Notes under the pieces: generated by a model
The model's input: only the letters and a program-made list of their open reading frames with translations
Told to the model about the DNA's origin: nothing
The model's database searches: none
Shown here: one piece after another, positions 28,123 through 61,401 of the stretch
How the letters are laid out: the number at the start of each line of letters is the position of its first letter
Numbering within the stretch: the first letter of the stretch is position 1
Source: an uncultured Verrucomicrobiales bacterium
Lineage (GTDB): Bacteria; Verrucomicrobiota; Verrucomicrobiia; Verrucomicrobiales; Akkermansiaceae
NCBI GenBank assembly: GCA_949373085.1
Contig: CASICJ010000020.1
Span: 11,657-75,656, forward strand
DNA: 64,000 nucleotides
Reading direction: 5' to 3'
Program-made: the position numbers and the translations under genes

Positions 28123-31100
28123 CTAATTCTCAACCACCCTGAGACGCAGGAATTGCTTCGTGACCTCAGAAACCGGAACGGGAACCCGAAAGGTACGCCT
28201 AACACTGCCATTCCCATTCGAGACTACCGGTAAAATCTCCTTAATATCGACAGAACTAGAAGACCAATCGGTGAGATTTGAGGAGGCCTCGACTACTCCT
28301 ACCAGGTCTCTCTGACCAAGGACCTGAGAGAAACTAAAGGTGAGATAATCTTCACCATTCGCATCCGTAATTGATACCCGGGGGCCGCGAACTACCGCAT
28401 CATTTTTCCCGGGAAGTGAACCAAGGAAGAACTCAACAAGATTAGGAAGACCATCACCATCAGGATCATCTAAAGGTCCTGAGGCTTGCTCGGCAGTAAA
28501 GACATAACTTTGCCAAGAGGCGTAAGCCAAAGATCGTAGCAAGCCTCCGGGGAGCCCGCCGACTTGCGCAGAGCCAGCCCAACTTGCAGCAAGTGTGTGA
28601 TCGGGGTTTAAAGATGGATTGAGGAGGACCAATGAGATTCCCTCGCCATCTGCACAACCCGGCCAAGGTTCTGCATCGTCATAGCTGAAACTCTTTACGA
28701 CACTGGCAGAGGTCTCCACTACGACTTGCTCTCCACCATTGGAAAGCCCACCACCATATTGACCAGCCACTAAAGACTCAAATCCATTCCCATAACGTTG
28801 CCTGAAGGCTTCGAGGCTTCGAACCAAAATGACCGAAGAGTCTGGTGCAAGCGAAGTGACAAACCCGTCGGCAAAGCTAAAACTGATCCCATCAGTGAAG
28901 GAAAGATCTGTGAGATCAATTGTCTGCTTGCCAATATTTTGTAACTCAATGAATTCAAAATCGTCAGGATCGGAGAACCCCGCCGCAAGCTCATCAGTAT
29001 TCGGTGGAGCCGGATGATAATGAATCTCGGATACAACGAGGTTTGAGGAATCAGGCTGAATTAGGCCAACCTTGAACTGGGCCTCGGTAAGCGCGCTCCA
29101 TTCTCCTCCCGGACTACGGAGTCGAGATTTTACGGTCACCACAGATTGAGGCAGCGAAACGGGAGCAGAATAGGTGAGAGCTCCATCAGCTACCATATTC
29201 CCAAACCGACGGGGATCCGAACCATCGAGAGTATAGAAGATGGTGCCAGGCCCTCCAGAAATCCTAACCTGAAAGCTACCACCAACCTCTCCGCCATACT
29301 GGTTATAACTAGGAGGCTCGGTGTTCGGCCAATATCCAGCATCGCGGAAATACTCATTATTTGGCCCTAGAAGATAACTCCGGCGAGACGTCCCCGAAGC
29401 AGTCCAGTATCGCCAAAATTCGGTATCCACCGACTGGTTAGAACGTTCATCAAGCAGCGGCGAAAACTCAGAAATCGCGGTATCAATCACTTCTCTAATC
29501 CGAGAATTATTTGGCAAGGAATCGTCAAGTGTTCCGCGGTTAAAGAAGTGCTTATGAATACGATCAGCAAGAATGAGACGGAACTCCGGCCAACGCTCCA
29601 GTCGTTGGAAAATCCGAGAGGTTGAGTCAGTTCTTAAAAGTAAATCCTCAGAGATCGTATTAAAATTCACCGGCTTGTTGCTATTGCTATTACCGGTTCG
29701 ACGTGGATGTCCAAAGGCCCCCTCAGCATCCCAGACATAGAAGCGATATCGTCCATCGAGCGAACGCTCACGAGCCGAGGCCCAATTATTATTTGGCCAA
29801 TCCCAGGTCGCACCATAAATATTGAGTAAGAAATAATCAGCCATTGCGATGGGATCAACAAGCTCCATCGCCCTTTCCCAATTACTTCGACTATTTACGT
29901 TGGATGCCTGAAGCCGGTTATTGAGAGTATTCCAGGCGGCATTATCGCCTTCGGCAAGCCCTCCGTCGGCGTTACCCGCTTGACGGATATCCCACTGGCC
30001 CGATCCTGGGTAGTGAGATTGAAAAAATGGCTCCCGTAATCTCTCGCAGGTATTGTAAAATCCTTTCCACTCGCCGTTTAAATAGAGGCTATTGAAAATA
30101 CCACGTGATCCGACATTCCCCATATCAATAAAAAGACGGCGCATCACCTCGTCCTTGATATAGGGGTTGTTAATATCATTCTTTCCAGCCCGCGGACGCA
30201 GTTGCTCGAAAGTATCAACCGGGTAGTCTTCTCCAAAGATCGGAAAAGTCACCGAAGAGTCCTCATACTCGTCACGGAAATAAATATTAAACGATGGCTT
30301 GTCCCGCGAGTTCGTTGACCACGGTGAGTTTTCAATCCCATTAAAAGTCATGCGGGGCCGAGAATAATTACTTGCAGCCATACGAAGACCTGCATCTTCA
30401 CGAAAGCCCATCGTCGAGTTTGCAGCATAGAACTCGATAAATGCTGGCCGTTCAAAGGCACGACCACGTTCAAGTGCCATATTATAGTCGCTCTTCTGAA
30501 CTACCTCCCATTTTTTATCGACATAACGCCCACCATCAATCGAGAGGACCCCATAGGGTTTAGTGAAAGAACGTTCAGTATCGGCAGTGAACAACATTGC
30601 CGGGGCCTTAGTGATGTTAGAACTCTGACCAACAAGAAAACTCCCGCATTTAATCTTAGATGGAATCGCTCCATCCAAAAACGCACGGGCACGGATACTG
30701 TGCCCAGTTCGCGGATTAATCTGCGAGAGGGATAGAGGGGCGACATAATCAATGCCATTTTTAAGCGTAGGCTCGGTCCCATCAGTCGTGTAACGAATCG
30801 TCGCGCCGGGAGTGGAAGTGGTGATTCCCAAGGTTACTGATCTGGCATGAAAACCACTTGGGGTATCGAAGTCTGGTTTTCCCACAACACCTGCATACGC
30901 AGGGCCGCCATTCGCCGCACCAGGCGATGGCTCAGAGAGATATGCGTAGCCCCCTCCGCCAGAAAGTAAACCGAGAGAATAAAAATCAAGCTGGCGAGGG
31001 AAGCCCCCAGCAAACTCAGTCTGCAGCACTCCAGAATCATCAACCAAGGCAAGATATTCCCCACCGGCATCCAATTTAAAATTCGCATGTAAATAGACTG

Positions 31101-33447
31101 GGGAAATTCCAGCGATGTCGAGATCGTCCGCCAATACGAGGAGATATCCTCCTGCTGGAATAGTCGTACCCGGAGGGAAACTCCATTTCTGCAAATCGGT
31201 CTCATTGTCGCTAAGGGACCACCCGGTCAGATCAACCACCGAGGCCCCGTTATTTGATAGCTCGATCCAATCCACAAATTCAGCCCGCATCTCTTCGACT
31301 GGCGCCGCCGGCTCAAAGACTCCTCCAGACGGCTCACCGATCCCAGCTTGATAGCGCCAAATTTGATTATTCTTCACGAGATCGCCACTCGCTCCGCCTT
31401 GGGTGTAGTCAACCTGAAAAGAATCGAGAGAAATCGTCCGACCTGCCTCCGAGTAACTCTCTTCACGAACCCGCAAACCCGGAGTAAAGGCAGTCAGATT
31501 ATTGGAATTCAAATAATTAATAAGAGCGGTTTGCTCATCAACATCACCCTTCGCCAGATCGATTTCGTAAGTGGCCCAAGCTCCCGGATCATTATCGACA
31601 ACTCGAAGGAATTCATCTTGATCGAGGGGGCGCCCAGTGTAACGAATTTCGTCGATCAAGACCCCGTAGTTTCCTCCAAATTTTCCAAATTCAATTGCCG
31701 AAGAAGGATGGGCATATCCACTCTCATCGTTGTCGACAAGAGCTCGAGTTTGCATGAGTTCATAGTCAAAGTAAAATTTAACTACCCCGCTATTTTCATC
31801 AAGAGATAAGGCGACATGATGCCACTCCGGACGATCATTAAACCCATTTCCATCGCGCGACCAATCGGAAGGGTCATTGTAGCTGGAAACCAAACCATTA
31901 CCCGAGTCGGTATCAACCCAGATTCTTCTCTCAGCTGGAACCGACGACCCACCAGTTGGCCCAAGAACAAAGTTAGCATTGTCACCGTCTGGCGTATCAA
32001 GGCGGGAACGCATTCTTCCAAATGCTCCGGCATTACCATGATCAAAATCGATCTGCCACCGTGAATTACTGCCAGCATTACGACGTAGAAAAGTATGGTA
32101 ACCAGCCGGCTCTCCATTAATTTTGACGAACATCTCTATCGTGAAAGAAGTGTTAAAAGCACTATTGTTTGGCACCGAAAGGCGACGATTTGAGGCCGAT
32201 ACGTCCATCGAGAATTGGTTGCTTCTTGCGGCATTCGCGAGCGGATCAAAAATGATCGTTCCGGGGACATCATTTGAGTAGGTGCCACCTCCGCGGCTGG
32301 TTGGTATCGCATTAAATCCATTGCTGCTAGAATCATTGGCGACCAACACGACCGCTCCATTACTTGCTACTCCATCATCAAAACGCCAGTAGCCAAGAGT
32401 CTCGTCACTAGAAGCTGCAACCACAGGAAATCCGGATGCCGAAATAAGTCCATCGCCTGACTCAGCGACGAAGTCAAAGACGGTCCCCGGTGACCCCTGA
32501 TATAAAAATGAGATTCGCGTCTCATTCAAATTTAAAGCAGTGATCGCTCCAGTTGTCCAATGAGCAGACATGTCAACCGGAGGAAATAGCAAGGTCGCTT
32601 CATCTTCGGTTCCCCGGCCAGATAGAGTGTAGGTAATCGCCCCATCACCATTCTCACCCGCTCCAGGATCAGAGAGAACTCCTACTTTAAAATCCGTCCA
32701 ATTACTTCCACTCCGAACTGAGGGCGACTGATCAAGCCATCCTCCTGACCTGAGATTCCCTGTTGTAATATTCGAAATTAATCCTCCGCTATTTGTATGG
32801 GTAATAGAGCTCCCATTAGCACTCGAGAAATCCTTGGATACGATATTAATCAAACTGATTCCGGCATCAATACGGAGCGCTCCATCGAAAAACAAAGACG
32901 AGTCAGGGTCGCGATTCACCACCTGCACCGCGATCGTATTCTCTCCTTCCACCAATAGATCCGAGGCCCTTCCAAGATTCAAACCTGTGGGGTTCCCTTC
33001 CGTCGCATCTTCATTGAATGCGATCTGGTCGGAATAAATAAACATTCCCGGAGCACCAAGATTACACCGGACCGCCTCTTTCCCATTAATAAGAACAATA
33101 ATTCCGTCATCAAACTCTGTCGTTAAAATCAGATCAGCCAACGAAGCGGCCTGACCCGCAGATACCGTAAAGGTATGTCGCAAATACAGCGATGGGGTCT
33201 TACCCTTAAGATCGGAAGCCAAATTGGTAGAGACGCGGCCATACCCAAAACCAAAGGGGGCTGATCCAGAGAGCCATTTTGAGTCGTTAAAATCGGATGA
33301 AAACCACGGTATACCCGCGCCGAGACTGGGTTGTCCGAGCTGAGAAAACTTCAGAAGTCTATCTGACGAAGCACCACTTATTTCGCTAATCACGACATCG
33401 CCGTAAACAAATGAAGGATAAAGGAGCAAAAGAGGGATAAATTTCAT
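28123..33447 (-). CDS. Giant secreted LTD / LamG / CotH kinase-like protein, paralogous in architecture to 10258-14793
   Basis: Signal peptide. N-terminal beta-sandwich (EFDDGIIVLINGKEAVR..NTIAVQV). LamG-like region (EWHHVALS). Internal LTD (FVDWIELSNNG..VDLTGWSL). Two TDGT/SDP chitobiase-C-like modules. CotH blocks (KPSFNIYF, RFYVWDAEGAFG). A second LTD (VVSEIHYHP..FEFIELQNIG). A DPDGDGLPN Ca-binding-like motif. Confidence 0.8.
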   Translation of the reverse strand: MKFIPLLLLYPSFVYGDVVISEISGASSDRLLKFSQLGQPSLGAGIPWFSSDFNDSKWLSGSAPFGFGYGRVSTNLASDLKGKTPSLYLRHTFTVSAGQAASLADLILTTEFDDGIIVLINGKEAVRCNLGAPGMFIYSDQIAFNEDATEGNPTGLNLGRASDLLVEGENTIAVQVVNRDPDSSLFFDGALRIDAGISLINIVSKDFSSANGSSITHTNSGGLISNITTGNLRSGGWLDQSPSVRSGSNWTDFKVGVLSDPGAGENGDGAITYTLSGRGTEDEATLLFPPVDMSAHWTTGAITALNLNETRISFLYQGSPGTVFDFVAESGDGLISASGFPVVAASSDETLGYWRFDDGVASNGAVVLVANDSSSNGFNAIPTSRGGGTYSNDVPGTIIFDPLANAARSNQFSMDVSASNRRLSVPNNSAFNTSFTIEMFVKINGEPAGYHTFLRRNAGSNSRWQIDFDHGNAGAFGRMRSRLDTPDGDNANFVLGPTGGSSVPAERRIWVDTDSGNGLVSSYNDPSDWSRDGNGFNDRPEWHHVALSLDENSGVVKFYFDYELMQTRALVDNDESGYAHPSSAIEFGKFGGNYGVLIDEIRYTGRPLDQDEFLRVVDNDPGAWATYEIDLAKGDVDEQTALINYLNSNNLTAFTPGLRVREESYSEAGRTISLDSFQVDYTQGGASGDLVKNNQIWRYQAGIGEPSGGVFEPAAPVEEMRAEFVDWIELSNNGASVVDLTGWSLSDNETDLQKWSFPPGTTIPAGGYLLVLADDLDIAGISPVYLHANFKLDAGGEYLALVDDSGVLQTEFAGGFPRQLDFYSLGLLSGGGGYAYLSEPSPGAANGGPAYAGVVGKPDFDTPSGFHARSVTLGITTSTPGATIRYTTDGTEPTLKNGIDYVAPLSLSQINPRTGHSIRARAFLDGAIPSKIKCGSFLVGQSSNITKAPAMLFTADTERSFTKPYGVLSIDGGRYVDKKWEVVQKSDYNMALERGRAFERPAFIEFYAANSTMGFREDAGLRMAASNYSRPRMTFNGIENSPWSTNSRDKPSFNIYFRDEYEDSSVTFPIFGEDYPVDTFEQLRPRAGKNDINNPYIKDEVMRRLFIDMGNVGSRGIFNSLYLNGEWKGFYNTCERLREPFFQSHYPGSGQWDIRQAGNADGGLAEGDNAAWNTLNNRLQASNVNSRSNWERAMELVDPIAMADYFLLNIYGATWDWPNNNWASARERSLDGRYRFYVWDAEGAFGHPRRTGNSNSNKPVNFNTISEDLLLRTDSTSRIFQRLERWPEFRLILADRIHKHFFNRGTLDDSLPNNSRIREVIDTAISEFSPLLDERSNQSVDTEFWRYWTASGTSRRSYLLGPNNEYFRDAGYWPNTEPPSYNQYGGEVGGSFQVRISGGPGTIFYTLDGSDPRRFGNMVADGALTYSAPVSLPQSVVTVKSRLRSPGGEWSALTEAQFKVGLIQPDSSNLVVSEIHYHPAPPNTDELAAGFSDPDDFEFIELQNIGKQTIDLTDLSFTDGISFSFADGFVTSLAPDSSVILVRSLEAFRQRYGNGFESLVAGQYGGGLSNGGEQVVVETSASVVKSFSYDDAEPWPGCADGEGISLVLLNPSLNPDHTLAASWAGSAQVGGLPGGLLRSLAYASWQSYVFTAEQASGPLDDPDGDGLPNLVEFFLGSLPGKNDAVVRGPRVSITDANGEDYLTFSFSQVLGQRDLVGVVEASSNLTDWSSSSVDIKEILPVVSNGNGSVRRTFRVPVPVSEVTKQFLRLRVVEN

Positions 33448-38259: not shown

Positions 38260-38928
38260 TTACCCGATTGGAAGATCGCCCAGCGACATCCGCCGCGATT
38301 TCCCGTCCTCGTTAGCTTGCCAGATAACCCCGGACTCAAGATCCAACGCGCTAAGCCAACCGCCACCATAGGCACAGGTATCCAGACAAATTGCGTATCC
38401 AAGATTGGTTGGCATGTCCCCCTGAATCGTATGACCACACACTACCGTCTTTCCCGACTGGTGGGGCCGCTGACTATAAAATCTCTGGTAGTAATAGGTC
38501 TCTCGCTCCTGTTGATTAACCGGCAATCCTGCCTCTACTCCAGCGTGCACCAAAATATAATCATCCAACTCGTGGTAAAGAGCCGCGCTTTTAATAAACT
38601 CCCAATGCTCGCTCGGAACATCCTCGAAACCGCCTCCGTAAGAATCAAGCGTATCGCGACCTCCACAAAGCCCACTCAAAAAACGCTCGCAGTCCTGCTT
38701 AGTCTCTAAAGCCCGAATCATCTGAATTTCATGATTCCCCATCAAATGAAACAGATTATGTGTCTGCTTCTTCTCTAGCAGACAATCGATCACTCCTTTT
38801 GAATTAGGCCCCCGATCTACATAGTCGCCCAAAGTGACTATCAAGTCTTTGCTTGATGGCATAACCACCTGAAACATCGTCTCCAGCGCCGTCAGACAGC
38901 CGTGAATATCTCCAATCACTAATTTCAT
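38260..38928 (-). CDS. Metallophosphoesterase (PPP-family Ser/Thr phosphatase-like)
   Basis: GDIHGC, GDYVDRG, GNHE and a GH motif, in canonical order. Confidence 0.85.
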   Translation of the reverse strand: MKLVIGDIHGCLTALETMFQVVMPSSKDLIVTLGDYVDRGPNSKGVIDCLLEKKQTHNLFHLMGNHEIQMIRALETKQDCERFLSGLCGGRDTLDSYGGGFEDVPSEHWEFIKSAALYHELDDYILVHAGVEAGLPVNQQERETYYYQRFYSQRPHQSGKTVVCGHTIQGDMPTNLGYAICLDTCAYGGGWLSALDLESGVIWQANEDGKSRRMSLGDLPIG

Positions 38929-38930
38929 TT

Positions 38931-39290
38931 TTAAAGAATCTCCCTCGTTTTTTGGGGCATGCCTTTTACCACCAATTGATAGGAATGATCAATGAGCTCG
39001 CCCACTAAATGGCTCGATAATGAGCCATCCAGTATTAATGTATTCCAGTGTTTCTTGTTCATATGGTAGCCCGGCAGGATAGTTTCATGCTCATCTCGCA
39101 ACTGCAATGCGCGCTCAGGATCACATTTTAAATTCATTTGCCCTACTTCGTCCTCAAACCTCAGGGTCGCAAATATTTTTCCTAGGATCTTATAAACTAA
39201 AACCTCGGGGCCAAATGGCGTCTCCTCAACCACCCTCGGCTTTATCATGATGTAACTTCGCACATCGTCCACCGAAAAGGTCATAGTCAA
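38931..39290 (-). CDS. MmcQ/YjbR family protein
   Basis: PGYHMNKKHWNT signature and appropriate size (119 aa). Confidence 0.8.
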   Translation of the reverse strand: MTMTFSVDDVRSYIMIKPRVVEETPFGPEVLVYKILGKIFATLRFEDEVGQMNLKCDPERALQLRDEHETILPGYHMNKKHWNTLILDGSLSSHLVGELIDHSYQLVVKGMPQKTREIL

Positions 39291-41063: not shown

Positions 41064-41125
41064 ATCAACCAGAATATTTTCCTTTGCTCATTGCCCATTC
41101 ATGCAGACCAGTGGATGTTTTGCCA

Positions 41126-42181
41126 ATGACTCTCGACGTACTTGAAACAGCCATCAATGAATGGCTCTCCCAAGGGGCAACCGATATCTTTTTGAGTGAA
41201 GATCAACGGACCCGAGTTCGAATAAACGGCGAGGTCGTTCCAGTGGCTGACTCAACGATGTCACGGCAAGATCTCTCCCATCTTTGGCAGGCCTGTAAAA
41301 TCGATCCAGCCTCTACCAATGAGATTGATTCGCGCTACCAAATGAAAAACGGTGGTTATATCCGGGCCAATCTTTACCGTGCCATGGGAAACCTTTGCGC
41401 CGCCATTCGCCCCATTAAAGCAATCATACCGCCACTCGATTCCCTCGGCCTTCCCACCGATCTGATCCGCCACTGGATTCATCGACGCTCCGGACTCATT
41501 CTTGTCACCGGAACCACTGGGTCAGGAAAATCCACTACCCTTGCTTCAGCTCTCGAAGAACTCAACGAAAGTCGACAGAACCATATTATTACCCTCGAAG
41601 ACCCCATCGAGTATCTCTTCCAAAACAAGAAGTCGTTCTTCTCCCAACGCGAACTGAACTCAGATACCGCTAAATTTTCCACAGCTCTTCGCGCCTCTCT
41701 TCGTCAAAACCCCGACGTAATTATGATCGGCGAGATCCGTGACGAAGAAACCGCCCAACTCGCTCTTCGCGCTTCCGAAACCGGACACCTTGTCATCAGC
41801 ACTCTTCACAGCTCAGGAGTTGTTGAATCGATCGAAAGACTAGGCAACTTGTTCCCCGAGAACCACGGGGCCACTTCGCGAATGCTTCTTTCCCGTCAGC
41901 TCGTCGGAGTGATCAACCAGAACCTCTTACCCGGCACAGATGGATCACTCAAGCTCGTCTCTGAATACCTTCAAAACGAAGGAGCTGTGCGTGGGTGGAT
42001 CCGCGAAGGACGCTATCACGATATTATCGATCACCTACAACGCCCACAGGATGCTCAAACCAGGAACATGCTTACCAGCATCGTGGAAATGTATCATCAG
42101 AACCTAATATCAGAGGACATTGCAAGAGATGCCGCCCCAAACCCAGGTGACTTTGACCGCCAAATCCGTGGCATTTCCTAA
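41126..42181 (+). CDS. PilT/PilU-like type IV pilus retraction-family ATPase (divergent copy)
   Basis: Walker A GTTGSGKSTT, the ITLEDPIEY Asp box, Walker B DVIMIGEIRD, and the TGHLVISTLH His box. ATG at 41126, though a TTG at 41084 is also possible. Confidence 0.8.
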   Translation: MTLDVLETAINEWLSQGATDIFLSEDQRTRVRINGEVVPVADSTMSRQDLSHLWQACKIDPASTNEIDSRYQMKNGGYIRANLYRAMGNLCAAIRPIKAIIPPLDSLGLPTDLIRHWIHRRSGLILVTGTTGSGKSTTLASALEELNESRQNHIITLEDPIEYLFQNKKSFFSQRELNSDTAKFSTALRASLRQNPDVIMIGEIRDEETAQLALRASETGHLVISTLHSSGVVESIERLGNLFPENHGATSRMLLSRQLVGVINQNLLPGTDGSLKLVSEYLQNEGAVRGWIREGRYHDIIDHLQRPQDAQTRNMLTSIVEMYHQNLISEDIARDAAPNPGDFDRQIRGIS

Positions 42182-42200
42182 ACACACTTCTTTATTAACT

Positions 42201-43289
42201 ATGACCACACCACAAGGAATCCGAGACTACCTTGCCCAGACCGTCACCAAAGGTGGCTCCGACTTACATCTCACCGTCGGTGCCCCCCCAGCCGCAAGAG
42301 TCCATGGGAACCTGCAAGCGCTTGAAGAAATGTCTTTCGACGCCAGCCAAGTTCGCGAATTAATTCTCGGGACCATGAACGAAACCCAGCGCTCAAAGCT
42401 GGAGGACGATTGGGAGCTCGACTACGCTATCGAGGTCAGTGGCGTTGGGCGTTTTCGCGGGAACGTGCACTTCTGCCGTCAAAATATCGAAGCAGTCTAT
42501 CGCTACATCCCAGCAGAAATTCCAGAGCTTTCAACCCTAGGACACTATCCGATTTTAGAGGAAATTTGCCACCTGCAGCGGGGCCTCGTTCTCATCACCG
42601 GAGTAACCGGCTCAGGAAAAACAACGACTCTTGCTTCATTAGTGCAAAGGATCTCTGAGATTCGCTCCGGCACGATCATCACTTTGGAAGACCCCATCGA
42701 GTTTTCTTTTCAGCACAATTCCTCGCTTATTAAACAGCGGGAGATCGGACGAGACACTAAATCATTCTCACTCGGGCTTCGTCAGTGCATGCGTCAGGAT
42801 CCCGACGTAATTGTCGTAGGCGAACTTCGCGATCGCGAGTCGATGCAGATCGCAATGACCGCAGCCGAAACCGGGCACCTCGTGATCAGCACCCTTCACA
42901 CAATCGACGCCCCAAAGTCGGTAGAGCGTATCATGGATCTTTTCCCCTCCGACCAACAAGTGCAAATCGCCTCGCAGCTTTCTAATGTTCTCGAAGCAAT
43001 CATTTGCCAAAGGCTTCTCCCAAGAGCCGATACCGATGGACGCGTCCTTGCCACCGAGGCTCTTCGCGTCAACTCCGGGATTCAATCCAGTCTCCGAAAA
43101 CGAAAGATCGAACAAGTAGTCGGCCTCATGGAAATTGCCCGACAAGAAGGCTGTCACACTATTGATGACTGCCTCGAAACGCTCGTCGCCCACAACTACA
43201 TCACCCAGCAAGATGCCATCCAAAACTGCAGAGATCCGCACCGATTTACTTCAGAAAGCCTTGCCAGCCGCCAGGCCGTAAAGAAGTAA
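42201..43289 (+). CDS. pilT: Twitching-motility ATPase PilT
   Basis: GSDLHLTVG, GVTGSGKTTT, ITLEDPIEF, DVIVVGELRD, and TGHLVISTLHT. ATG at 42201. Confidence 0.9.
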   Translation: MTTPQGIRDYLAQTVTKGGSDLHLTVGAPPAARVHGNLQALEEMSFDASQVRELILGTMNETQRSKLEDDWELDYAIEVSGVGRFRGNVHFCRQNIEAVYRYIPAEIPELSTLGHYPILEEICHLQRGLVLITGVTGSGKTTTLASLVQRISEIRSGTIITLEDPIEFSFQHNSSLIKQREIGRDTKSFSLGLRQCMRQDPDVIVVGELRDRESMQIAMTAAETGHLVISTLHTIDAPKSVERIMDLFPSDQQVQIASQLSNVLEAIICQRLLPRADTDGRVLATEALRVNSGIQSSLRKRKIEQVVGLMEIARQEGCHTIDDCLETLVAHNYITQQDAIQNCRDPHRFTSESLASRQAVKK

Positions 43290-43827: not shown

Positions 43828-46800
43828 TTAAAGACTATGAGGGGCTCGAGTTCCTATAAAATTTGCGATGAAGGCCATTGCCAATACCAACCCTGCCATC
43901 CATAGCAAGTCCATCACCCCAACCGTTCCGCCCAAAACCGGAATCACCGCAATCAAGGCCGATACCAAACCTATCCCAAGCCCCCAGGCAACCATTGACC
44001 TAACCTCATTTTTCACGATCTTGGACCGTCTCAGCTTGGAGATACCCAGCATCCTCAGGGTTTCAAATTCTGCCTTCCGCTCGACCAAATTACGGGCAGT
44101 GACAATACCAACCCCAACACTACCGAGAATGATCCCCAAACCTCCAAGCACATTAAAAATTGCGATATAGGTATTCTCGACCTCATGAAAAGCCGCGAGC
44201 CTATCCTTTGTTGCCGTCACTTTCCCTCCCAGATCAGCCGTCTCTTCCTGCAAAATCTCACGCCCTTTTTCGTCAGGAGAAAGGAAGAGTTGGTAGCCGC
44301 CAAGCGAGGGATACTTCTCCAAAAGCTTCTTCTCACTCAGAATCAAACTTCCTTGAAAAACCGAGTCCTTCACCACTCCAGCAATCGTCACAGAGAAATC
44401 ATTTCCCCACTCGTCCTGATAGATCAGTTCATCCCCCACCTTCTTCTTCAAAACCCACATCATCGTCGTTTCATCAACGATCGCCGGAACCCCATCACCT
44501 TCTAAGATTGACCACTTATCGCTTGTCTTGAACCGACCCGCAAGAAGGTCGGGGTCCACGCCCAGTAGGCGAGGTTGGCTGGAAGCAGTGAGATTAAAAC
44601 AATCGACATCATCGCCCTCACCAATTCGGAAAGGCACTAGGGTCTTCAGTCCAAACCAATCAACCTCCCCTTTTGCATCAGCAGGCCGATTTACAGATGA
44701 AGTGGTCTCTACCCACCATGCAAAGCCACCCGCCCCACTGGTCTTATCCTCCCAATTTTCTCCTCCGTTCTTCCGGAAAGAAGCCACCGAAAGGACCAGA
44801 AAAACTCCGGCTGCAAGCACGCCCACCACCGTCAAACTTCGTGAAGCCCGACGGGCCAGGTTCACCTTAGCCATCCCATCTGGTGAAAATTCCCCCAGAG
44901 AGCCAATCCGCGACAGTCGTTTCCGGAAAACCGCCAACCCCGTAACTAAGACCCCGAAGCCCACTAGAAAAAATGCTCCTTGGGCCGCTGCTGTATAGCT
45001 CATTGCGATTCCACCTACTACTACGAGAAGGCCAAAAACGAGGAAACCCGTCGCCCATTTGCTGGGTTTCCCAACTTCTTCCTCAGCACCCGAATTAAGG
45101 CGTAGACTAGCACTCTGGCTAACCTGCTTGCGATTCGTTAACCAAACCGAAAGCAAGGTGAATCCCGCAATCCCAAAAAGCCCCTTAGCGATCGTCCAGC
45201 CACTTAAGTGCAGATCAAAAGCTGTGCCATCGCCCCAAATCGAACTGATCACCTTAAGCACGATCGTGCAGAAAACTATCGCGAGAAGGGCCCCAATGAT
45301 CGCGCCTGCAAGGACTACAAAAAAAGCTTCTCCCATTCGCCAGTTGGCAATCTTCTTCACCGAAATCCCCACCGCCGAAAGAAGAGCCCCTTCTTCCGCC
45401 CGCTGCTCTACATTGAAACGAAACAACATCGTCACCAGCGCAATTGCTGCGATGATTAGAAAGAAGCTCATCGCAAGAAATAGGATCGCAAAATCCACCG
45501 GCGACTTCGCCGCCTCCTTCGCTTGCTCCGAGAAATCCATCACCTCCATTCCCGCCAAAGAAGGTTCCAGTATCTCGCGAACTGACTTCGTCACCCCGTC
45601 AACCTGCCCTCCTAGCACCCTCATTCCAGTCACCTTTCCCCAGCGATTGGCCCAAAGTTTCTCTCCGGTTTGATGCGAGACAAAAGCCTTTGGTGTCCCC
45701 TTGAACTCCTCCCAATACTCGTCGTCCTTGTCCCGGATTCGAGTCAGATCCAGAGGCATGCCCGGCTCCCAATCGCGGGCACTCTCGACATCAGCCACTC
45801 CGGGGAAATCCGGCATCCAGCGTTGATCAGCTGCCGGGCCTTCCATCTTCACGATCGCTTTCACCGCAAATACTCCACGCTTCTCAACCAGCTTGCTGCC
45901 TGATTCAACCACGAAGTAGTCCATCGTCAGCTCATCACCGACTTGGGCCCGCAAATCCTCCGCTAACCAATCGTTAATCACGACCTCTCCTTCACCCGGC
46001 TGCGTTGGAAGAAACATCGCGGACTTCCCGCTCACCGCCGTCACCATGGAATACGGAGTTTCCCCGACTTCAGTCGCCAGGGTATTAATCAAATAAGTCA
46101 ATACCGGCTCACCTACGATTTTTTCCGCAATCCTCGGCTCCATGAAAATCCGCTCGGACCGCACCTCGACTCCATTCGGCACTTCGACGACCGAGATTCC
46201 GTAATCCGCCAATTCCAATTCTCCCGGATCGAAAGACTCGTCTTCATCCAGCAAAAGAGCATTGGCCTTCCCCTTGAGATCGAGGACTTTTTGAAGTCGC
46301 TTCAGCGGCACGAAAACCGAGGACGGCGGGACTTGAGTTTGTTCAAGGCTGAATCTTCCGAACTCTTCATCGCTCAAAACTTTCGCCACCGTAATCCGCA
46401 TCGAAGAGACCGATTCGCTCTCACCCGAGAGTGGAGCATCACGCGAAAGAAGCCCTGGCTTTTGCAAACGCACCACCCCCGAATCACCTTCTTTGAGATT
46501 TAGCGCCCGCGCCAAAGGCCCACTGATGGCAGCGTCGAAATTCGACAGATCCACCGAAGTCTCTTGCGGTGCGAAGTCCCAAAAATCTTCCGAAACTCCC
46601 ATCACCTGAACCTGCCCCTCGGCCCGTTCCTCCACATTAACCTGCCCCTTCAGATAAATCATGGCCGACCCACCATTTCGCGAAGCCAAATCGTCGCGAA
46701 AAAAACGTTCACCACCCGAAAAGATCTTCGCAACCTTCCCAATCCGTAACTCTGCTGACTTAGTGAGGCTTTCCTGCACCGAATCCCCCGCCATCAGGGC

Positions 46801-46902
46801 GCCCAGAAGGACCATGGCCCCCACTGCAGCGCCCGCGAGCACACCCCAGTAGGCTGACCGATAATGGCAAATCCCTTTCCAAATAAATCCCGTGCTCTTC
46901 AT
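43828..46902 (-). CDS. ABC-transporter permease with two FtsX/MacB-type domains
   Basis: Two blocks of four TM helices, each preceded by a large extracytoplasmic domain. FtsX-type R..E...L...G loop motifs (EEGALLSAVGIS, EFETLRMLGIS). Confidence 0.85.
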   Translation of the reverse strand: MKSTGFIWKGICHYRSAYWGVLAGAAVGAMVLLGALMAGDSVQESLTKSAELRIGKVAKIFSGGERFFRDDLASRNGGSAMIYLKGQVNVEERAEGQVQVMGVSEDFWDFAPQETSVDLSNFDAAISGPLARALNLKEGDSGVVRLQKPGLLSRDAPLSGESESVSSMRITVAKVLSDEEFGRFSLEQTQVPPSSVFVPLKRLQKVLDLKGKANALLLDEDESFDPGELELADYGISVVEVPNGVEVRSERIFMEPRIAEKIVGEPVLTYLINTLATEVGETPYSMVTAVSGKSAMFLPTQPGEGEVVINDWLAEDLRAQVGDELTMDYFVVESGSKLVEKRGVFAVKAIVKMEGPAADQRWMPDFPGVADVESARDWEPGMPLDLTRIRDKDDEYWEEFKGTPKAFVSHQTGEKLWANRWGKVTGMRVLGGQVDGVTKSVREILEPSLAGMEVMDFSEQAKEAAKSPVDFAILFLAMSFFLIIAAIALVTMLFRFNVEQRAEEGALLSAVGISVKKIANWRMGEAFFVVLAGAIIGALLAIVFCTIVLKVISSIWGDGTAFDLHLSGWTIAKGLFGIAGFTLLSVWLTNRKQVSQSASLRLNSGAEEEVGKPSKWATGFLVFGLLVVVGGIAMSYTAAAQGAFFLVGFGVLVTGLAVFRKRLSRIGSLGEFSPDGMAKVNLARRASRSLTVVGVLAAGVFLVLSVASFRKNGGENWEDKTSGAGGFAWWVETTSSVNRPADAKGEVDWFGLKTLVPFRIGEGDDVDCFNLTASSQPRLLGVDPDLLAGRFKTSDKWSILEGDGVPAIVDETTMMWVLKKKVGDELIYQDEWGNDFSVTIAGVVKDSVFQGSLILSEKKLLEKYPSLGGYQLFLSPDEKGREILQEETADLGGKVTATKDRLAAFHEVENTYIAIFNVLGGLGIILGSVGVGIVTARNLVERKAEFETLRMLGISKLRRSKIVKNEVRSMVAWGLGIGLVSALIAVIPVLGGTVGVMDLLWMAGLVLAMAFIANFIGTRAPHSL

Positions 46903-47044: not shown

Positions 47045-49285
47045 TTATTGGCTCAAGGCAAATGCCTCTTCAAGAGCTTGTAGCGCTTCATCCGGCCCAA
47101 AAACTTCCGGCATCACAATAATCGGAGCACTAGGATCGGCTGGCACCACCAAATTCACGGGCAGATTGGCGCGGCCATAGCGCTTGAGGTCATCATTGAT
47201 TGATTGAAGCTTATCAGTGTTATCAGCTTGAATGAGGAGAACATCCAAGGCCTCCAAACGATCAAGAACTTTTTGATTCGAGAACACACGGCCCTCGTTC
47301 ACTTTACAAGTCGCTCACCAATCAGCAGTGTAGTCGACCCATATTATTCGTTTCTTGGAACGCGACTGCTCCATTATTCCCGGATACCACTCATTCCAGG
47401 CTAGTCCTGATTCGGGAGGCTTCGCCGTTGAGTAAGCCCATGCGATTCCGCCCACTGTCATAAGCCCAGCTAGACCAAACCCAGTGACGTAACGTTTCGT
47501 CTTTGTAATAGCTTGATTGCCATAACGGCCATACATGTAAACTCCGAGACCAATCAGGCAGAGCGCAAAGAGGAAGACGTTAAAGTGATCGTCACCGACC
47601 AACTTGAGATATCCCTTCATAAAAAAGACAGCGGTTGCGAAAACAAAGAAGGCCATGACCTGCTTAAAAGTTTCCATCCAGGCTCCCGGGCGAGGAAGCT
47701 TCTTGATAAGCGCGGGGAAGAAGGACAACAAAATATAAGGTGAGGCAATTCCGAGTCCAAAGACGGTGAATACCGCAAACTGGATTACCTTGTTATCCTG
47801 CGAAAGCGCAAAAGCCATCACCGCTCCCAGGAAAGGTCCAGAGCAAGGGGTCGCAACGAGGGTGGTCAAGGCTCCTGAGAAGAACGACCCAGAGTAACCT
47901 TTCTTCCCCTGTAGCTCTCCGCCAACACTTGTCATGCTCGTTCCAATTTCAAAAACCCCATAAAGATTAAGACCCATCAGGAAAAAAACGATAATCATCG
48001 TCCCAAGGAAGATGGGATTGGCCAATTGCTGCCCCCAATCAAGTTTGAGGGAAATGATAAATGCGGCAAGGATCCACATCGTAATCAGAAGTCCAAGACC
48101 GAACACCAAACCATGTAGCTTGATCTTATCTTCATCCTCCCCGGCTTGCGAAACAAAGCCCATGATTTTGAGACCTAGCACCGGAAAGACACAGGGCATA
48201 AGGTTGAGAATCAACCCTCCGAGAAAGACCAAACCAAGCGATGAAATAAAGGTCACTTGCTTCTCTTGTTCGCCGCCTAAAAGAACAACTTCGGGCCGGG
48301 CATCCGCATCATAAACCGCAAGACCCGCTTCGCGGTCCTCTTTAGACGCCTTGATCACTTTTTCGCTTGGACCGTTCATCTGCACATCGGCATCCGGAAT
48401 GAATGCAGCTGCAACCTCCAAACCAATGGGGCCATAATCGGACTGAACAGTCAGTAGGCCAGACAAGCTTTCCTGGACTTCCCCGGCATCAATGAAGAGA
48501 TCTTCATTCCCTTCATTCCGTGTGAGCGTCACGATGATTTCACTCTTGCCAATCTCAACCTTCTGATTGGCCTGCGAATCAATCTGTTTGTCAGTCGAGA
48601 AAAAGTAAACTGGCTCACTGAGCTCCAGACCTTCCGGATAAATGGCCTTTAGCGTAATTACATTACTTTTCTCGGTTGCGAGAAAACCCCATGCCGAACT
48701 ATCCCTTGGCAGCTTCTTGCCAGCCTCCTCAAAAAGAGCCTCATCGGCTTCAACCATCAAGGTTTCATCGCCAACTTTAATCATGAAGGAGAAATCCTGA
48801 TTTCCGAGCATACAAGTCTCATCACATTCCTGCCAATTGAAGCTGCCCTTGATGTTAAAATCCTTGCCCCTTTCAAGATTTTCATCGGCTACGATCTCGG
48901 TCACAAAGATCGCTTTGCCTTCATATCCATACCCCACCGACTCGACTCCGGTCGATATCGATTTAAAAGCCTTGGGGAGAGGAAACAGTAATTCACCAGC
49001 CGTAAATCCATCAGGAAGCTCCCACTCGACGGACGGAGGATCCCCCACCATTCCAGCATTCTTAAAATAGGCATGGAACTTGGGCTGCAGATCTAGAATA
49101 AATGCCACCCTAAAAAAATCGCCCGGCTCGATCTGAGTGACCTCCGACTTAATCGTCGCAGTCGTTTCCTTCGTCAGAAACGCCGGTTCGCCAAAAGGAT
49201 CTTGCGCAGAAACAAGCGGCGCGAGGATTGCAGTGAAGATAAAAATGAGAAATCGATGCTTCATTGGTTCTGACTGATTGTCCAT
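47045..49285 (-). CDS. DsbD/ScsB-type protein-disulfide reductase with an in-frame TGA (predicted selenocysteine) in the thioredoxin-domain UxxC motif
   Basis: ORFs 47315-49285 and 47045-47302 are in the same frame, separated only by TGA + GCG ACT TGT AAA. The joined sequence reads IIWVDYTADW-[TGA]-ATCKVNEGRVF, which aligns with the E. coli DsbD gamma domain [21 protein letters not shown]. Upstream are a DsbD_N-like domain (WQECDETC) and a CcdA-like core (LNLMPCVFPVL, ATPCSGPFLG). The downstream piece has no ATG, only an in-frame GTG. Confidence 0.7.
47274..47301 (-). promoter_or_regulatory. Candidate bacterial SECIS hairpin downstream of the in-frame UGA
   Basis: The mRNA reads UGA-a-CGAGGGC-CGUGU-GUUCUCG-aa-UCA. 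The upper stem is 7 bp (5 Watson-Crick + 2 G-U), the lower stem is 3 bp, and the 5-nt loop contains G and GU. The lower stem starts 13 nt after the UGA at 47315-47317, and the upper stem starts 17 nt after it. Confidence 0.45.
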
Positions 49286-58895: not shown

Positions 58896-59005
58896 GTCCG
58901 GCTCTCATCAACCTTTGCGCACACCTCCTCCAAACGGAGCTCAAATCATCACTCAATCTAACAGAATTGAAGAAAATGTAATTTACTACCACTAACTCGC
59001 GTTAC

Positions 59006-59953
59006 TTGGAGATGCGCGCGCTTTCGCTCACACTCTTCGGAATTACCTTGGCATCAGCTGATCCGCTCACCTTCAATACCACTCCTCTCGGGCAGAAAGA
59101 TCGCCCCATTATTCTGCGGACCTACGTTCCCGATCCAGGGCTGGCTCCGGCAGTCCTTTCCAATCATGGCGAAGCCTCCAAATCGCCAAAATACAGTCCC
59201 AATAGTGGCCGTGACGTTGGGGGAGAATACCGTATGATGAAAGTTATTCCCGCAGCGCTCGCAGTAAACCACGGCCCTGCACTTTCCTACGTTTGGGACA
59301 CCACCGAATGCCGTCTCCTTTATGCCTGGCAAGGTGGGTTTATCGATCTCTATCCCTACTGGGGTGAGAAAACCCGGGGTGGACGACGTTCTTTCGATTA
59401 CGGTGCCCGCCTCGTTGGAAACCTTTTTTACATGGCTCAACCCATCAAAAGAGAGAAGCCCACCTTCATTGGATATGACCTCTCGGATCAGGGAGTTCCC
59501 ACCTTCCACTATAAGCTCGGTGACACTAAATACGCCGAAACCATTCTCCCGAACGATCGCCAGTATTCCTTCGCGATCAATCAAGGCTCTAAAAAATTAA
59601 CGATCAAAGGCAAGCTGATTTCAGAACACCAAGGCTTTGATCGTAATCTAAAAATTAAATCCGTTACCGTAAAATCCGGACAACAAGTCTTCGGCGCTTA
59701 TGGATGTGTCGCTTGTCATTCCACCGACGGATCGAAAGGCCACGGCCCAAGCCTAAAAAACCTCGCCGGCTCAACCCGGCCTATCGAGGGAAGCGACCCC
59801 GTTCTCGCCGACGCCGCCTATCTCACCGAATCGATCAAGAACCCCAACGCCAAAACCGCACAAGGATTCCCGCCTGGCTATATGCCGCCTTATCAACTCA
59901 AGGACAAGGAAGTCGAATCCCTAGTGCTCTACATTCAATCTCTCGCCAAATGA
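59006..59953 (+). CDS. Secreted protein with a C-terminal c-type cytochrome domain
   Basis: Signal peptide. CVACHS haem motif with a downstream GYMPPY Met ligand. The N-terminal ~220 aa are unassigned. The start is the TTG at 59006 or the ATG at 59012. Confidence 0.65.
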   Translation: MEMRALSLTLFGITLASADPLTFNTTPLGQKDRPIILRTYVPDPGLAPAVLSNHGEASKSPKYSPNSGRDVGGEYRMMKVIPAALAVNHGPALSYVWDTTECRLLYAWQGGFIDLYPYWGEKTRGGRRSFDYGARLVGNLFYMAQPIKREKPTFIGYDLSDQGVPTFHYKLGDTKYAETILPNDRQYSFAINQGSKKLTIKGKLISEHQGFDRNLKIKSVTVKSGQQVFGAYGCVACHSTDGSKGHGPSLKNLAGSTRPIEGSDPVLADAAYLTESIKNPNAKTAQGFPPGYMPPYQLKDKEVESLVLYIQSLAK

Positions 59954-61401
59954 AACATTCTCTCCTTTTTATCCTTCTGTCTACTCCTCTCCTCGCAACT
60001 CCCTACAAAGTTGAGGATATCAAATTCCCTGCCAGCGTTCCCCCGGAAGTAGGTGGGATTGACTTCGCGCCTGACGGCACCCTCTTCGCGGTTCTGCGTC
60101 GTGGCGATGTCATGCGCGCAAGACCCGCCGCCGACCCTACTCAGTGGAAATGGGAACTTTTTGCCACGGGCTTTCACAACGGCTGCGGCATCGATGCCGT
60201 CTCGCGTGACAAGGTGCGTGTCACCCAAATGGCCGACTTTACCGAAGCCACCGATACCGACAACGATGGTATTGCCGATCAATACCGTATCTTCGCGGCC
60301 GGCTGGGGGCTCTCCGGAAACTACCACGAAACCAACACCATCGCTGAAGACGGTAAAGGTGGATACTATATTGCCATCGGCACCGCCTCACACAATGGGC
60401 CCACCGCCGAGCACACCCTTGGCGAGTATTCTAAATTCGGCCGGCGCGGCCGTAACTTCGCCTCAGTGAAGTGGCGCGGTTGCACTCTCTATTGTGATCC
60501 AAAAGGAAACCTCTCACCTTTTTGCTTTGGCTTCCGAATGCACAACGGCATCCACCAAGATTCTTCCGGAAACCTGTGGTGTGGCGACAATCAAGGTGAT
60601 TGGCGGGCTACCACTCCACTCTATCACCTAGAAAGAGGTAATTTTTATGGCCACCCTAGCGCCCTCGTCTGGGATGAACGCTGGCCCGAGGATAAGGATC
60701 CACTCCACACCTACCGCGAAGATCTCGAGGCCTACAACAAACATCGAACTTGGCCTTCCATACAGATTCCTCACAGCGAAATGAATCGCTCAGCTGGCGA
60801 ACCTTACGAGATCCCCAAAAACTTCCCTCACTTCCCCGGCCAGATGCTCCTACCCGACAACAACAGTAAACGCATCACCCGTATTATGCTAGAGAAGGTT
60901 AATGGTAAGTTCCAGGGAGCCTGTACTCACTTTCTTAATGGTGGAGGTCTTCGCAGCGGAAACCACCGCATCCGTTTCAGCTCGGACCAACAGAAAATCT
61001 ACGTCGGCCAAACTGTTCGCGGCTGGGGAAAAGAAGCCGAGGGACTGCAACGCATCACCCCGATCAGTGAAGAACCTTTCGACATCACCGCCTTCAATAT
61101 CACTCCACAAGGCTTTAAAATTACCTTTACTCGTGAACTTGAGAACGATCTAGCTGCCAAAGATCTCAAGTTCAAATCCTTCACCTATCAATCGAAGTGG
61201 ACCTACGGTTCACCTCAAGAAAATACGACTAATAACAAAGTTCAGAGTGTTAAGCACCTCAGCGCAAAAACCGTCGAGATTACTCTGGATAGATTCAAAC
61301 CTGGTCGAGTTTACCAACTCGACCTTGAGGAACTAAAATCAAAAGACGGCGATGAAATCCAAAATCGCCTTTTTTACTACACCGCCAACCAACTTCCCTA
61401 A
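59950..61401 (+). CDS. Secreted beta-propeller protein (SGDH/PQQ-dehydrogenase-like)
   Basis: The ATG at 59950 overlaps the upstream stop (ATGA). Signal peptide MKHSLLFILLSTPLLA. Propeller-like blocks (GIDFAPDGTLF, DTDNDGIAD, RN, NLWCGDNQGDW). Confidence 0.65.
   Translation: MKHSLLFILLSTPLLATPYKVEDIKFPASVPPEVGGIDFAPDGTLFAVLRRGDVMRARPAADPTQWKWELFATGFHNGCGIDAVSRDKVRVTQMADFTEATDTDNDGIADQYRIFAAGWGLSGNYHETNTIAEDGKGGYYIAIGTASHNGPTAEHTLGEYSKFGRRGRNFASVKWRGCTLYCDPKGNLSPFCFGFRMHNGIHQDSSGNLWCGDNQGDWRATTPLYHLERGNFYGHPSALVWDERWPEDKDPLHTYREDLEAYNKHRTWPSIQIPHSEMNRSAGEPYEIPKNFPHFPGQMLLPDNNSKRITRIMLEKVNGKFQGACTHFLNGGGLRSGNHRIRFSSDQQKIYVGQTVRGWGKEAEGLQRITPISEEPFDITAFNITPQGFKITFTRELENDLAAKDLKFKSFTYQSKWTYGSPQENTTNNKVQSVKHLSAKTVEITLDRFKPGRVYQLDLEELKSKDGDEIQNRLFYYTANQLP

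Follow-up and report, generated by a model that had tools for sequence, protein, structure and literature searches.

The window analysed here, a stretch of 64,000 nucleotides of DNA from an uncultured Verrucomicrobiales bacterium, carries on its minus strand a gene for a ScsB/DsbD-type thiol:disulfide reductase in which an in-frame TGA stands at the active site. We are highly confident that this UGA genuinely encodes selenocysteine (Sec). Accordingly read, the two open reading frames (ORFs) obtained when the codon is taken for a stop are very probably one gene and not two, coding for an inner-membrane thiol:disulfide reductase of roughly 740 residues with Sec at 47315-47317. Sec in the gamma domain of a ScsB/DsbD protein is not surprising in principle, and the form is widespread and systematically mis-annotated.

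The upstream ORF of 656 codons (47315..49285) closes with RIIWVDYTADW immediately before the TGA. Beyond the TGA the frame runs on unbroken for another 89 codons, beginning with GCG ACT TGT AAA (A-T-C-K), so that the read-through frame counts 746 codons from the first ATG. The downstream ORF of 85 residues, as listed mechanically, begins with a GTG, and the codon of C660 sits between the TGA and the earliest possible restart codon. This layout had been described with its coordinates in an earlier note on this DNA, including the in-frame A-T-C-K continuation and a downstream start 12 nt past the TGA, and all of it was reproduced. The note had also placed the TGA at the first Cys of the gamma CxxC, where the alignment indeed matches it with mature Cys461 of Escherichia coli DsbD, and the remaining redox cysteines of the window protein, C154 and C158 (WQECDETC), C365 (MPCVF) and C481 (ATPCSG), are ordinary TGT or TGC codons as it had stated. 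Judged from the alignment, the true start is probably M8 (ATG 49262-49264) and not the first ATG (49283-49285): M8 is invariant in family alignment A1 and the majority of homologs begin there (MKHRFLIF...). A start at M8 would give a product of 739 residues with Sec at position 650. The features that carry the argument are the following.

47045..49285, minus strand: whole read-through coding sequence of the ScsB/DsbD-type reductase, 746 codons from the first ATG, with the stop TAA at 47045-47047
47315..47317, minus strand: in-frame TGA, predicted Sec codon, residue 657, equivalent of mature Cys461 of E. coli DsbD
47306..47308, minus strand: TGT of C660, the resolving Cys of UxxC, invariant in all TGA-form loci
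47279..47297, minus strand: predicted bacterial Sec insertion sequence (SECIS) hairpin, with stem 47291-47297 / 47279-47285 and loop 47286-47290

The conservation of the codon is the first line of evidence. Among the best 120 homologs (38-97% identity, mainly Akkermansiaceae and Verrucomicrobiales, marine metagenomes) about 110 are proteins of approximately 650 residues with the C-terminus exactly at ...DYTA[DE][WTG], and four are full length, with C-x-x-C followed by the thioredoxin domain. Metagenome contigs were also searched without regard to the codon, using peptide seeds taken only from upstream of it (W[VLI]DYTADW, WYPG...). At the 68 readable confirmed loci the codon was TGA in 67 cases and TGC in one, TAA and TAG being absent, and at every locus the frame continued past the codon with 83-101 residues of conserved thioredoxin domain. 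The combined set of genomes and metagenomes holds 74 distinct TGA-form loci (the raw figure of 75 counts the window twice). A scan of species-representative genomes recovered the TGA form in metagenome-assembled genomes (MAGs) of two Akkermansiaceae, two Pirellulaceae, one Vicinamibacteria and one Verrucomicrobiales, and TGC or TGT at the codon in about 70 other DsbD-family genes.

The TGA stands opposite the first CxxC Cys of the homologs P0033, P0058, P0070, P0090, L002, L009 and L118. Two of the outcomes considered in the earlier note can be reported together: Cys is encoded at this position (TGC/TGT) in L002, L009, L118, P0033 and some 70 more distant DsbDs, and the orthologs, instead of terminating uniformly ahead of an independent downstream gene, have TGA as their only stop codon here, followed in the same frame by x-x-Cys and the thioredoxin domain. 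The TGA is also present in two named strains, Rubritalea halochordaticola (GCA_039544995.1) and Verrucomicrobiaceae bacterium 227 (CP144259.1, a complete 6.3-Mb genome), and the identical window protein with the same TGA context was found in three independent assemblies. Since the TGA context recurs in independent assemblies and in named strains, it is very unlikely that resequencing would give TGC or TGT. The Cys three codons past the TGA is invariant in the TGA-form loci and, as it lies upstream of any restart, a separately initiated product would lack the whole redox motif. In 57 closely related pairs the ratio of nonsynonymous to synonymous substitution rates (dN/dS) was 0.028 over the 80 codons ahead of the TGA and 0.062 over the 45 that follow it. 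By this measure the frame past the TGA is under purifying selection and is translated.

The second line of evidence is an RNA hairpin placed where a bacterial SECIS would be expected. It reads CGAGGGC-CGUGU-GUUCUCG, a 7-bp stem with a 5-nt loop, the stem lying 17 nt and the loop 24 nt past the UGA. The published model of the bacterial SECIS has a loop of 3-9 nt, a stem of 4-16 bp, a G in the first two loop positions, a distance of 16-37 nt from UGA to loop and an energy of at most -7.5 kcal/mol (PMC13188914), and the hairpin agrees with it throughout (5 nt, 7 bp, C-G-U-G-U, 24 nt and -7.6 kcal/mol). When the sequence of the window alone was folded in a context of 60-66 nt it was not distinguishable from shuffles (z = -0.1 to -0.55), and its significance lies in the comparison between sequences. 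In the 64-kb window the motif GARNNNCGTGTNNNYTC has a single occurrence, with 0.08 expected by chance, and the TGA-form loci have one copy each at an identical offset.

In alignment A3, which holds 49 distinct TGA-form sequences anchored on the TGA without gaps, RNAalifold returned a single structure, a 7-bp stem 17 nt past the UGA with an invariant CGUGU loop, and 95.3% of the cells were paired. Compensatory changes were seen in the outer pair (U-A in 26 sequences, C-G in 13), in the fourth pair (G-C in 45, A-U in 4) and in the loop-closing pair (C-G in 33, G-C in 16, none unpaired). The covariation score was 0.384 against 0.221 in shuffles, none of 500 shuffles reaching it, and it fell to 0.13 or less when the 3' partner was slid by 1-3 columns. 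An extended lower stem was also considered and rejected, as the alignment gives no support for it. Within the peptide N-E-x-R-V-F-S the stem varies at the third positions of the codons for N, E, x, V, F and S, and CGU is used for the Arg throughout. All seven pairs are present at the same offset in 33 of 45 TGA forms, whereas most of the 75 genes with Cys have 1-4 of them. In P0033, a Cys form, the peptide KRVFS is likewise present but uses the codons CGA GUU UUU AGU, and the hairpin is missing, from which it follows that the constraint on the RNA is separable from that on the protein. The hairpin of the earlier note is thus real and starts 17 nt downstream of the UGA, conserved, covarying, specific to the TGA forms and within the published constraints, although the span first given to it (47274-47301) was slightly generous.

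Three other explanations of the TGA have to be weighed. It could be a true stop in a two-piece system, with a 656-residue alpha-beta membrane protein and a separately initiated thioredoxin-like protein. This is the very split (656 + 80 aa) which gene callers and the NCBI and JGI annotations produce, and natural split systems of this kind, CcdA with separate thioredoxin-like proteins, are generally known. However, the codons between the TGA and any start spell x-x-Cys with an invariant Cys, so that a separate product would be deprived of its redox motif; more than 70 loci have TGA and never TAA or TAG; the two parts are not shifted in frame in any locus and the Cys-form relatives are single fused ORFs; and a conserved, covarying hairpin stands at SECIS distance from the TGA. 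We consider a two-piece system highly improbable. For a pseudogene, or a sequencing or assembly error of TGC/TGT, the chance is next to nil: a lone in-frame stop in an otherwise intact gene does resemble a point error or a recent nonsense mutation when one sequence is seen, but the same TGA is found in over 100 homologs down to 38% identity, in the three assemblies of the identical protein and in the named strains, and purifying selection persists downstream (dN/dS 0.06). The comparative data refute this explanation.

The remaining alternative is read-through without Sec, in which a near-cognate tRNA stimulated by the hairpin, or a local recoding, would insert Cys or Trp and give a Cys or Trp protein. 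Downstream hairpins are generally known to be able to stimulate read-through of stop codons, and Sec machinery was not seen in the DNA sampled (the window and about 1 Mb of homologous loci). Nevertheless the codon is that of the catalytic Cys of CxxC, the classic site of UxxC selenoproteins (Table 1, PMC13188914), the hairpin has the G-U in the loop and the spacing specific to the bacterial SECIS, and related taxa are documented Sec users (PMC5029168, PMC4807772). Trp at the codon would abolish the redox function, and if Cys sufficed TGC or TGT would be one base away, yet the TGA is kept in nearly the whole clade. Read-through of this sort is in our opinion very unlikely. A general reassignment of UGA in the genome was rejected as well: the stops of the 39 main ORFs in the window are TAG in 15, TAA in 15 and TGA in 9, and since those nine end in TGA the codon is an ordinary stop elsewhere in the window.

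Several points weigh against a Sec codon and have to be set beside the evidence for it. The selenium in the protein is itself a prediction from nucleotide sequence. ARAGORN found no tRNA in the window, tRNA-Sec included, and tblastn with E. coli SelA, SelB and SelD gave no match to selA, selB or selD in the window and about 1 Mb of homologous loci. As none of these genes lies in the window or in the related loci, the Sec machinery is presumed rather than seen for the genome of the window. Rfam reported no SECIS-like family, either at gathering threshold in the whole window or at permissive E-values in 47150-47420, a chance match on the other strand being all that it gave. Moreover the stem overlaps the conserved peptide N-E-x-R-V-F-S, so that part of the conservation of the hairpin is at the protein level, and the constraints on RNA and on protein are told apart only by the covariation at third positions and the invariant CGU of the Arg. 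Any kinetic gain from Sec in the electron relay is speculation.

The loci of the two named strains likewise gave no tblastn match to E. coli SelA, SelB or SelD, and no Sec machinery was recognised by Pfam among the approximately 40 window ORFs of at least 150 aa. With regard to related organisms, Rubritalea marina DSM 17716 (with one selenoprotein) and two marine single-cell Verrucomicrobia are Sec users (Peng et al. 2016, PMC5029168 Table S2), and marine Planctomycetes have complete sets of Sec-insertion genes (PMC4807772). The window was also scanned for further in-frame TGA read-through in a UxxC or CxxU context, and nothing convincing was found besides the reductase gene.

The protein is a ScsB-type member of the DsbD superfamily with three domains, since its layout and its alpha domain fit the definition of Cho et al. 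2012 (PMC3322552), in which ScsB has a DsbD-like organisation and a larger alpha domain divided into two subdomains, with a pair of conserved cysteines in the N-subdomain. DsbD_N, DsbD_TM (PF02683, 66 bits against a cut-off of 27.1) and Thioredoxin_7 (PF13899, 40.3 bits against 27) all exceeded the curated cut-offs of Pfam in the read-through product, and the Thioredoxin_7 match spans the TGA. The gamma active site is U657-A-T-C660, a UxxC in place of the CxxC of the superfamily, and the cis-Pro motif is LPVN. Comparisons of sequence and fold together show the order signal peptide, periplasmic alpha domain of tandem immunoglobulin-like (Ig) folds (C154-x3-C158), DsbD_TM (C365, C481) and periplasmic gamma domain (U657-A-T-C660), with these features.

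49205..49285, minus strand: signal peptide region, MDNQSEPMKHRFLIFIFTAILAPLVSAQ followed by D, read from the sequence, with a putative cleavage site before this D
48791..49132, minus strand: alpha domain, first Ig-like subdomain, Pfam DsbD_N, residues 52-165
48824-48826 (C154) and 48812-48814 (C158), minus strand: CxxxC pair of the alpha domain, both invariant in the family alignment
48262..48790, minus strand: alpha domain, second beta-sandwich subdomain and linker, about residues 166-341, from the model, with approximate boundaries
47615..48238, minus strand: beta (transmembrane) domain, Pfam DsbD_TM, residues 350-557
48191-48193 (C365, MPCVF) and 47843-47845 (C481, TPCSG), minus strand: redox cysteines of the beta domain, invariant in alignments A1 and A4
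47144..47401, minus strand: gamma domain with thioredoxin fold, Pfam Thioredoxin_7, residues 629-714

A BLASTP alignment with E. coli DsbD covers the membrane and gamma domains (25% identity over 384 residues, E = 4e-22), with C365, C481 and U657 corresponding to C182, C304 and C480 of the precursor, that is to C163, C285 and C461 of the mature protein. The alpha region, of about 310 residues, is about double the size of DsbD-alpha. A family profile searched against the PDB found 6C29, the alpha domain of Proteus mirabilis ScsB, at E = 1.3e-7 with the CxxxC aligned; phmmer with the full protein gave no PDB match at E <= 0.001, and 6C29 emerged only with the profile. The fold was modelled not on the window protein but on the Cys homolog P0033, which is 58% identical to it (AlphaFold, mean predicted local distance difference test score 82.8). 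In this model residues 2-20 form a helix, a linker of low confidence comes next, and the remainder consists of the alpha domain as a tandem beta-sandwich, the membrane domain as a bundle of helices and a thioredoxin fold in which the active-site residue is directly N-terminal of helix alpha-1 and LP[VT]N precedes a strand. In a Foldseek search with the P0033 model the top match was 6c29_A (E = 1.2e-11, template modelling (TM) score 0.73, 273 columns), which is matched in full by the tandem beta-sandwich, and next came the DsbD-gamma structures 2fwf, 1uc7 and 1vrs_D with TM scores of 0.58-0.67. The proposal of a DsbD/ScsB-type reductase in the earlier note is therefore borne out, with the alpha domain now refined to the ScsB type (CxxxC, tandem Ig folds) rather than that of E. 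coli DsbD.

A mechanism can be proposed on these grounds. The hairpin 17 nt downstream would bring SelB with Sec-tRNA(Sec) to the ribosome stalled at the UGA, and Sec would be inserted instead of termination taking place. By homology with DsbD and ScsB, electrons would pass from cytoplasmic thioredoxin to the membrane cysteines C365/C481, from these to the gamma selenenylsulfide U657/C660 and on to the alpha disulfide C154/C158, and the alpha domain would deliver them to partners in the periplasm, for example isomerases, TlpA-like proteins or peroxiredoxins. In E. coli DsbD, Cys461 is the exposed gamma residue which forms the mixed disulfide with the alpha domain, as in structure 1VRS. With Sec at this position, two exchange reactions in succession would turn on a residue that is superior both as nucleophile and as leaving group; moreover a selenolate might withstand irreversible over-oxidation, and the relay might be faster in an oxidising marine envelope.

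The ScsB proteins of Caulobacter crescentus, P. mirabilis and Salmonella share with the window protein the two-subdomain alpha domain, the DsbD_TM beta domain, the thioredoxin-like gamma domain and the CxxxC of the alpha domain, and by homology also the presumed export of electrons to periplasmic reductases, isomerases and peroxiredoxins. Within the DsbD superfamily ScsB counts as the third branch (Cho et al. 2012, PMC3322552). The described ScsB proteins all have Cys in the gamma CxxC, whereas Sec is predicted in the window protein, and they come from Proteobacteria and Chlamydia (PMC3322552), whereas the Sec clade belongs to marine Verrucomicrobiota, Planctomycetota and one Vicinamibacteria MAG. 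Among the approximately 40 window ORFs of at least 150 aa there was no ScsB-type context (scsC, scsD, tlpA or peroxiredoxin partners), nor did Pfam recognise in them any thioredoxin-like, DsbA-like, redoxin or AhpC/TSA gene. With E. coli DsbD (DipZ) the membrane and gamma domains, the positions of three redox residues and the gamma fold are held in common, but the window protein has an alpha domain of the ScsB type, roughly double the length, and Sec instead of Cys461. The NCBIfam model for DsbD gives the window protein 121 bits against a cut-off of 330.

Among selenoproteins, a 'thiol:disulfide interchange protein' family was reportedly described in 2004 by Kryukov and Gladyshev for Geobacter and Syntrophus. 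The model cd02953 is presumably that of DsbD-gamma in CDD. The Global Ocean Sampling (GOS) survey lists the 2004 family as 'Trx-like 2, cd02953, UxxC' with 22 sequences from 13 samples. The reads are from the surface ocean, which is also the habitat of the Sec clade, and some of them may be fragments of the family of the window gene. The 'thiol:disulfide interchange protein' family shares with the window protein a fold of the DsbD-gamma/Thioredoxin_2/_7 type with Sec first in the CxxC; its reference member from Geobacter metallireducens (PMC1794560 supplement), however, is a soluble protein of 190 residues, thioredoxin-like with TPR and devoid of alpha and membrane domains, and its match to the window gamma domain is marginal (20% identity over 50 residues, E = 0.008). 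With this family of small soluble UxxC proteins having a single thioredoxin-like domain (PF13098) the window protein, which is three-domain and membrane-bound, has only the position of Sec in common.

Only one catalogued selenoprotein, TsoB (NF045694), has a DsbD-like membrane and thioredoxin portion, and the window protein matches positions 176-528 of its model at 171.3 bits, far short of the cut-off of 805. A rhodanese domain is part of TsoB, and its two Sec residues are arranged as UxxxxU, in contrast to the single Sec in UxxC of the window protein, in which Pfam found no match to a rhodanese domain. The SECIS elements of E. coli fdhF and fdnG resemble the hairpin in being stem-loops within the coding sequence just past the UGA, with a small apical loop and a G then a U early in it, but their primary sequence is unrelated, the CGUGU loop and the NGAGRRS/SYUCUCN stem being specific to the family of the window gene. 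Of the 119 prokaryotic selenoprotein families catalogued in 2026 none is a three-domain DsbD/ScsB protein, the nearest being TsoB, and a DsbD or ScsB containing Sec was not explicitly described in the literature that we searched. UxxC selenoproteins with a thioredoxin fold are well established and the three-domain DsbD/ScsB form is apparently uncatalogued.

A neighbour-joining tree was built from 127 distinct sequences, and the 54 Sec forms all fell in one clade of 57 leaves. The only Cys forms nested in this clade are L002, L009 and L118, and the remaining 70 DsbD genes of Cys form branch outside it. L118, the nearest relative with Cys, retains six of the seven hairpin pairs, a remnant as expected for a recent change from Sec to Cys. 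The clade spans three phyla, being found across Verrucomicrobiota, Planctomycetota and one Vicinamibacteria MAG, which suggests horizontal spread among marine bacteria, with the reservation that MAG binning may be imperfect. It is possible, if rather doubtful, that the Sec-containing ScsB is the sole or nearly sole selenoprotein of some marine Akkermansiaceae and that its presence in three phyla reflects horizontal transfer of a gene carrying its own SECIS. This idea is based on the listing of R. marina with one selenoprotein and on the TGA form of R. halochordaticola. In that case the whole Sec-decoding apparatus would be kept for one selenium atom in a periplasmic relay, and the reducing power of the envelope, and hence tolerance to copper and peroxide, would depend on the marine supply of selenium.

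Two peculiar loci were met in the comparative set. At L048:4834 (Verrucomicrobiales MAG CPC300) there is a divergent TGA form, DYTAVW-U-AIC-QTNEQFVLH, without N-E-x-R-V-F-S or the CGUGU hairpin; the locus has runs of N and may have a different SECIS or represent a separate change from Cys to Sec. In the TARA contigs L094 (3566-3612) and L095 (same place) an insertion of about 35 nt, missing from the near-identical L093 and L001, lies between the stop of the reductase and the FtsX-like gene. It copies the module of UGA, 17 nt and hairpin (GGG-TGA-GTGACTTCCGTGGTGAA-UGAGAAA-CGUGU-UUUCUCC), with 69% identity to the true Sec/SECIS segment. The copy and its flank form a hairpin of 6 bp with the loop CGUGU, spaced as in the true element and in the reading frame of the FtsX-like ORF that follows. 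It may be no more than a short duplication without function, or else a regulatory decoy resembling a SECIS.

In public databases the gene is recorded in pieces. The homologs P0006, P0028, P0030, P0114, P0122, P0123 and P0128 are truncated products of about 650 residues in NCBI or JGI, named 'protein-disulfide reductase DsbD family protein', 'cytochrome c biogenesis protein CcdA' or 'thiol:disulfide interchange protein DsbD', and the downstream piece of 80-90 residues is annotated as a separate gene with no Pfam match on record. NCBIfam has no model for the Sec form. As a consequence of this split or truncated annotation marine Verrucomicrobiota and Planctomycetota look as if they had no catalytic gamma domain. 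With the Sec form recognised, the prokaryotic selenoproteome would gain a widespread membrane-bound family, and selenium availability would be tied to the maintenance of envelope redox in abundant marine heterotrophs. Moreover a natural Sec variant at the residue which shuttles between membrane and alpha domains of the well-measured DsbD relay would be a clean system for comparing Sec with Cys, in which rate, redox potential and resistance to over-oxidation could be addressed.

The reductase gene is followed, 143 nt downstream, by a gene for an FtsX/MacB-type permease of 1024 residues (43828-46902, minus strand), an order also found in Verrucomicrobiaceae bacterium 227 (L154:12600-15671) and not in R. 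halochordaticola. Its other neighbour encodes a family-2 glycosyltransferase. The earlier note had also spoken of two other disrupted genes in the window, attributed to homopolymer indels. The sole overlapping, stop-free segments on the same strand in different frames with a homopolymer in their overlap are 58982-61398 (plus strand, A6 at 59755) and 38263-39290 (minus strand, A6 at 38953), and these may be the genes meant. According to Pfam a cytochrome c domain extends to about 59944, DUF7133 begins at about 60148 and Metallophos covers 38260-38928, so that a frameshift is not clearly required.

At 41084-43289 (plus strand) there are two adjacent ORFs which both match T2SSE, the family of type II/IV secretion ATPases; their appearance is that of a PilT/PilU-like tandem and not of a single interrupted gene, and their overlap of 60 nt stems from the choice of the upstream-most TTG as start. 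Two giant ORFs of 1511 and 1774 residues (10258-14793 and 28123-33447, both minus strand) contain Lamin-tail (LTD) and CotH kinase domains. The sulfatases and the DUF1501, DUF1549, DUF1553 and PSCyt genes of the window are typical of the Planctomycetes-Verrucomicrobia group.

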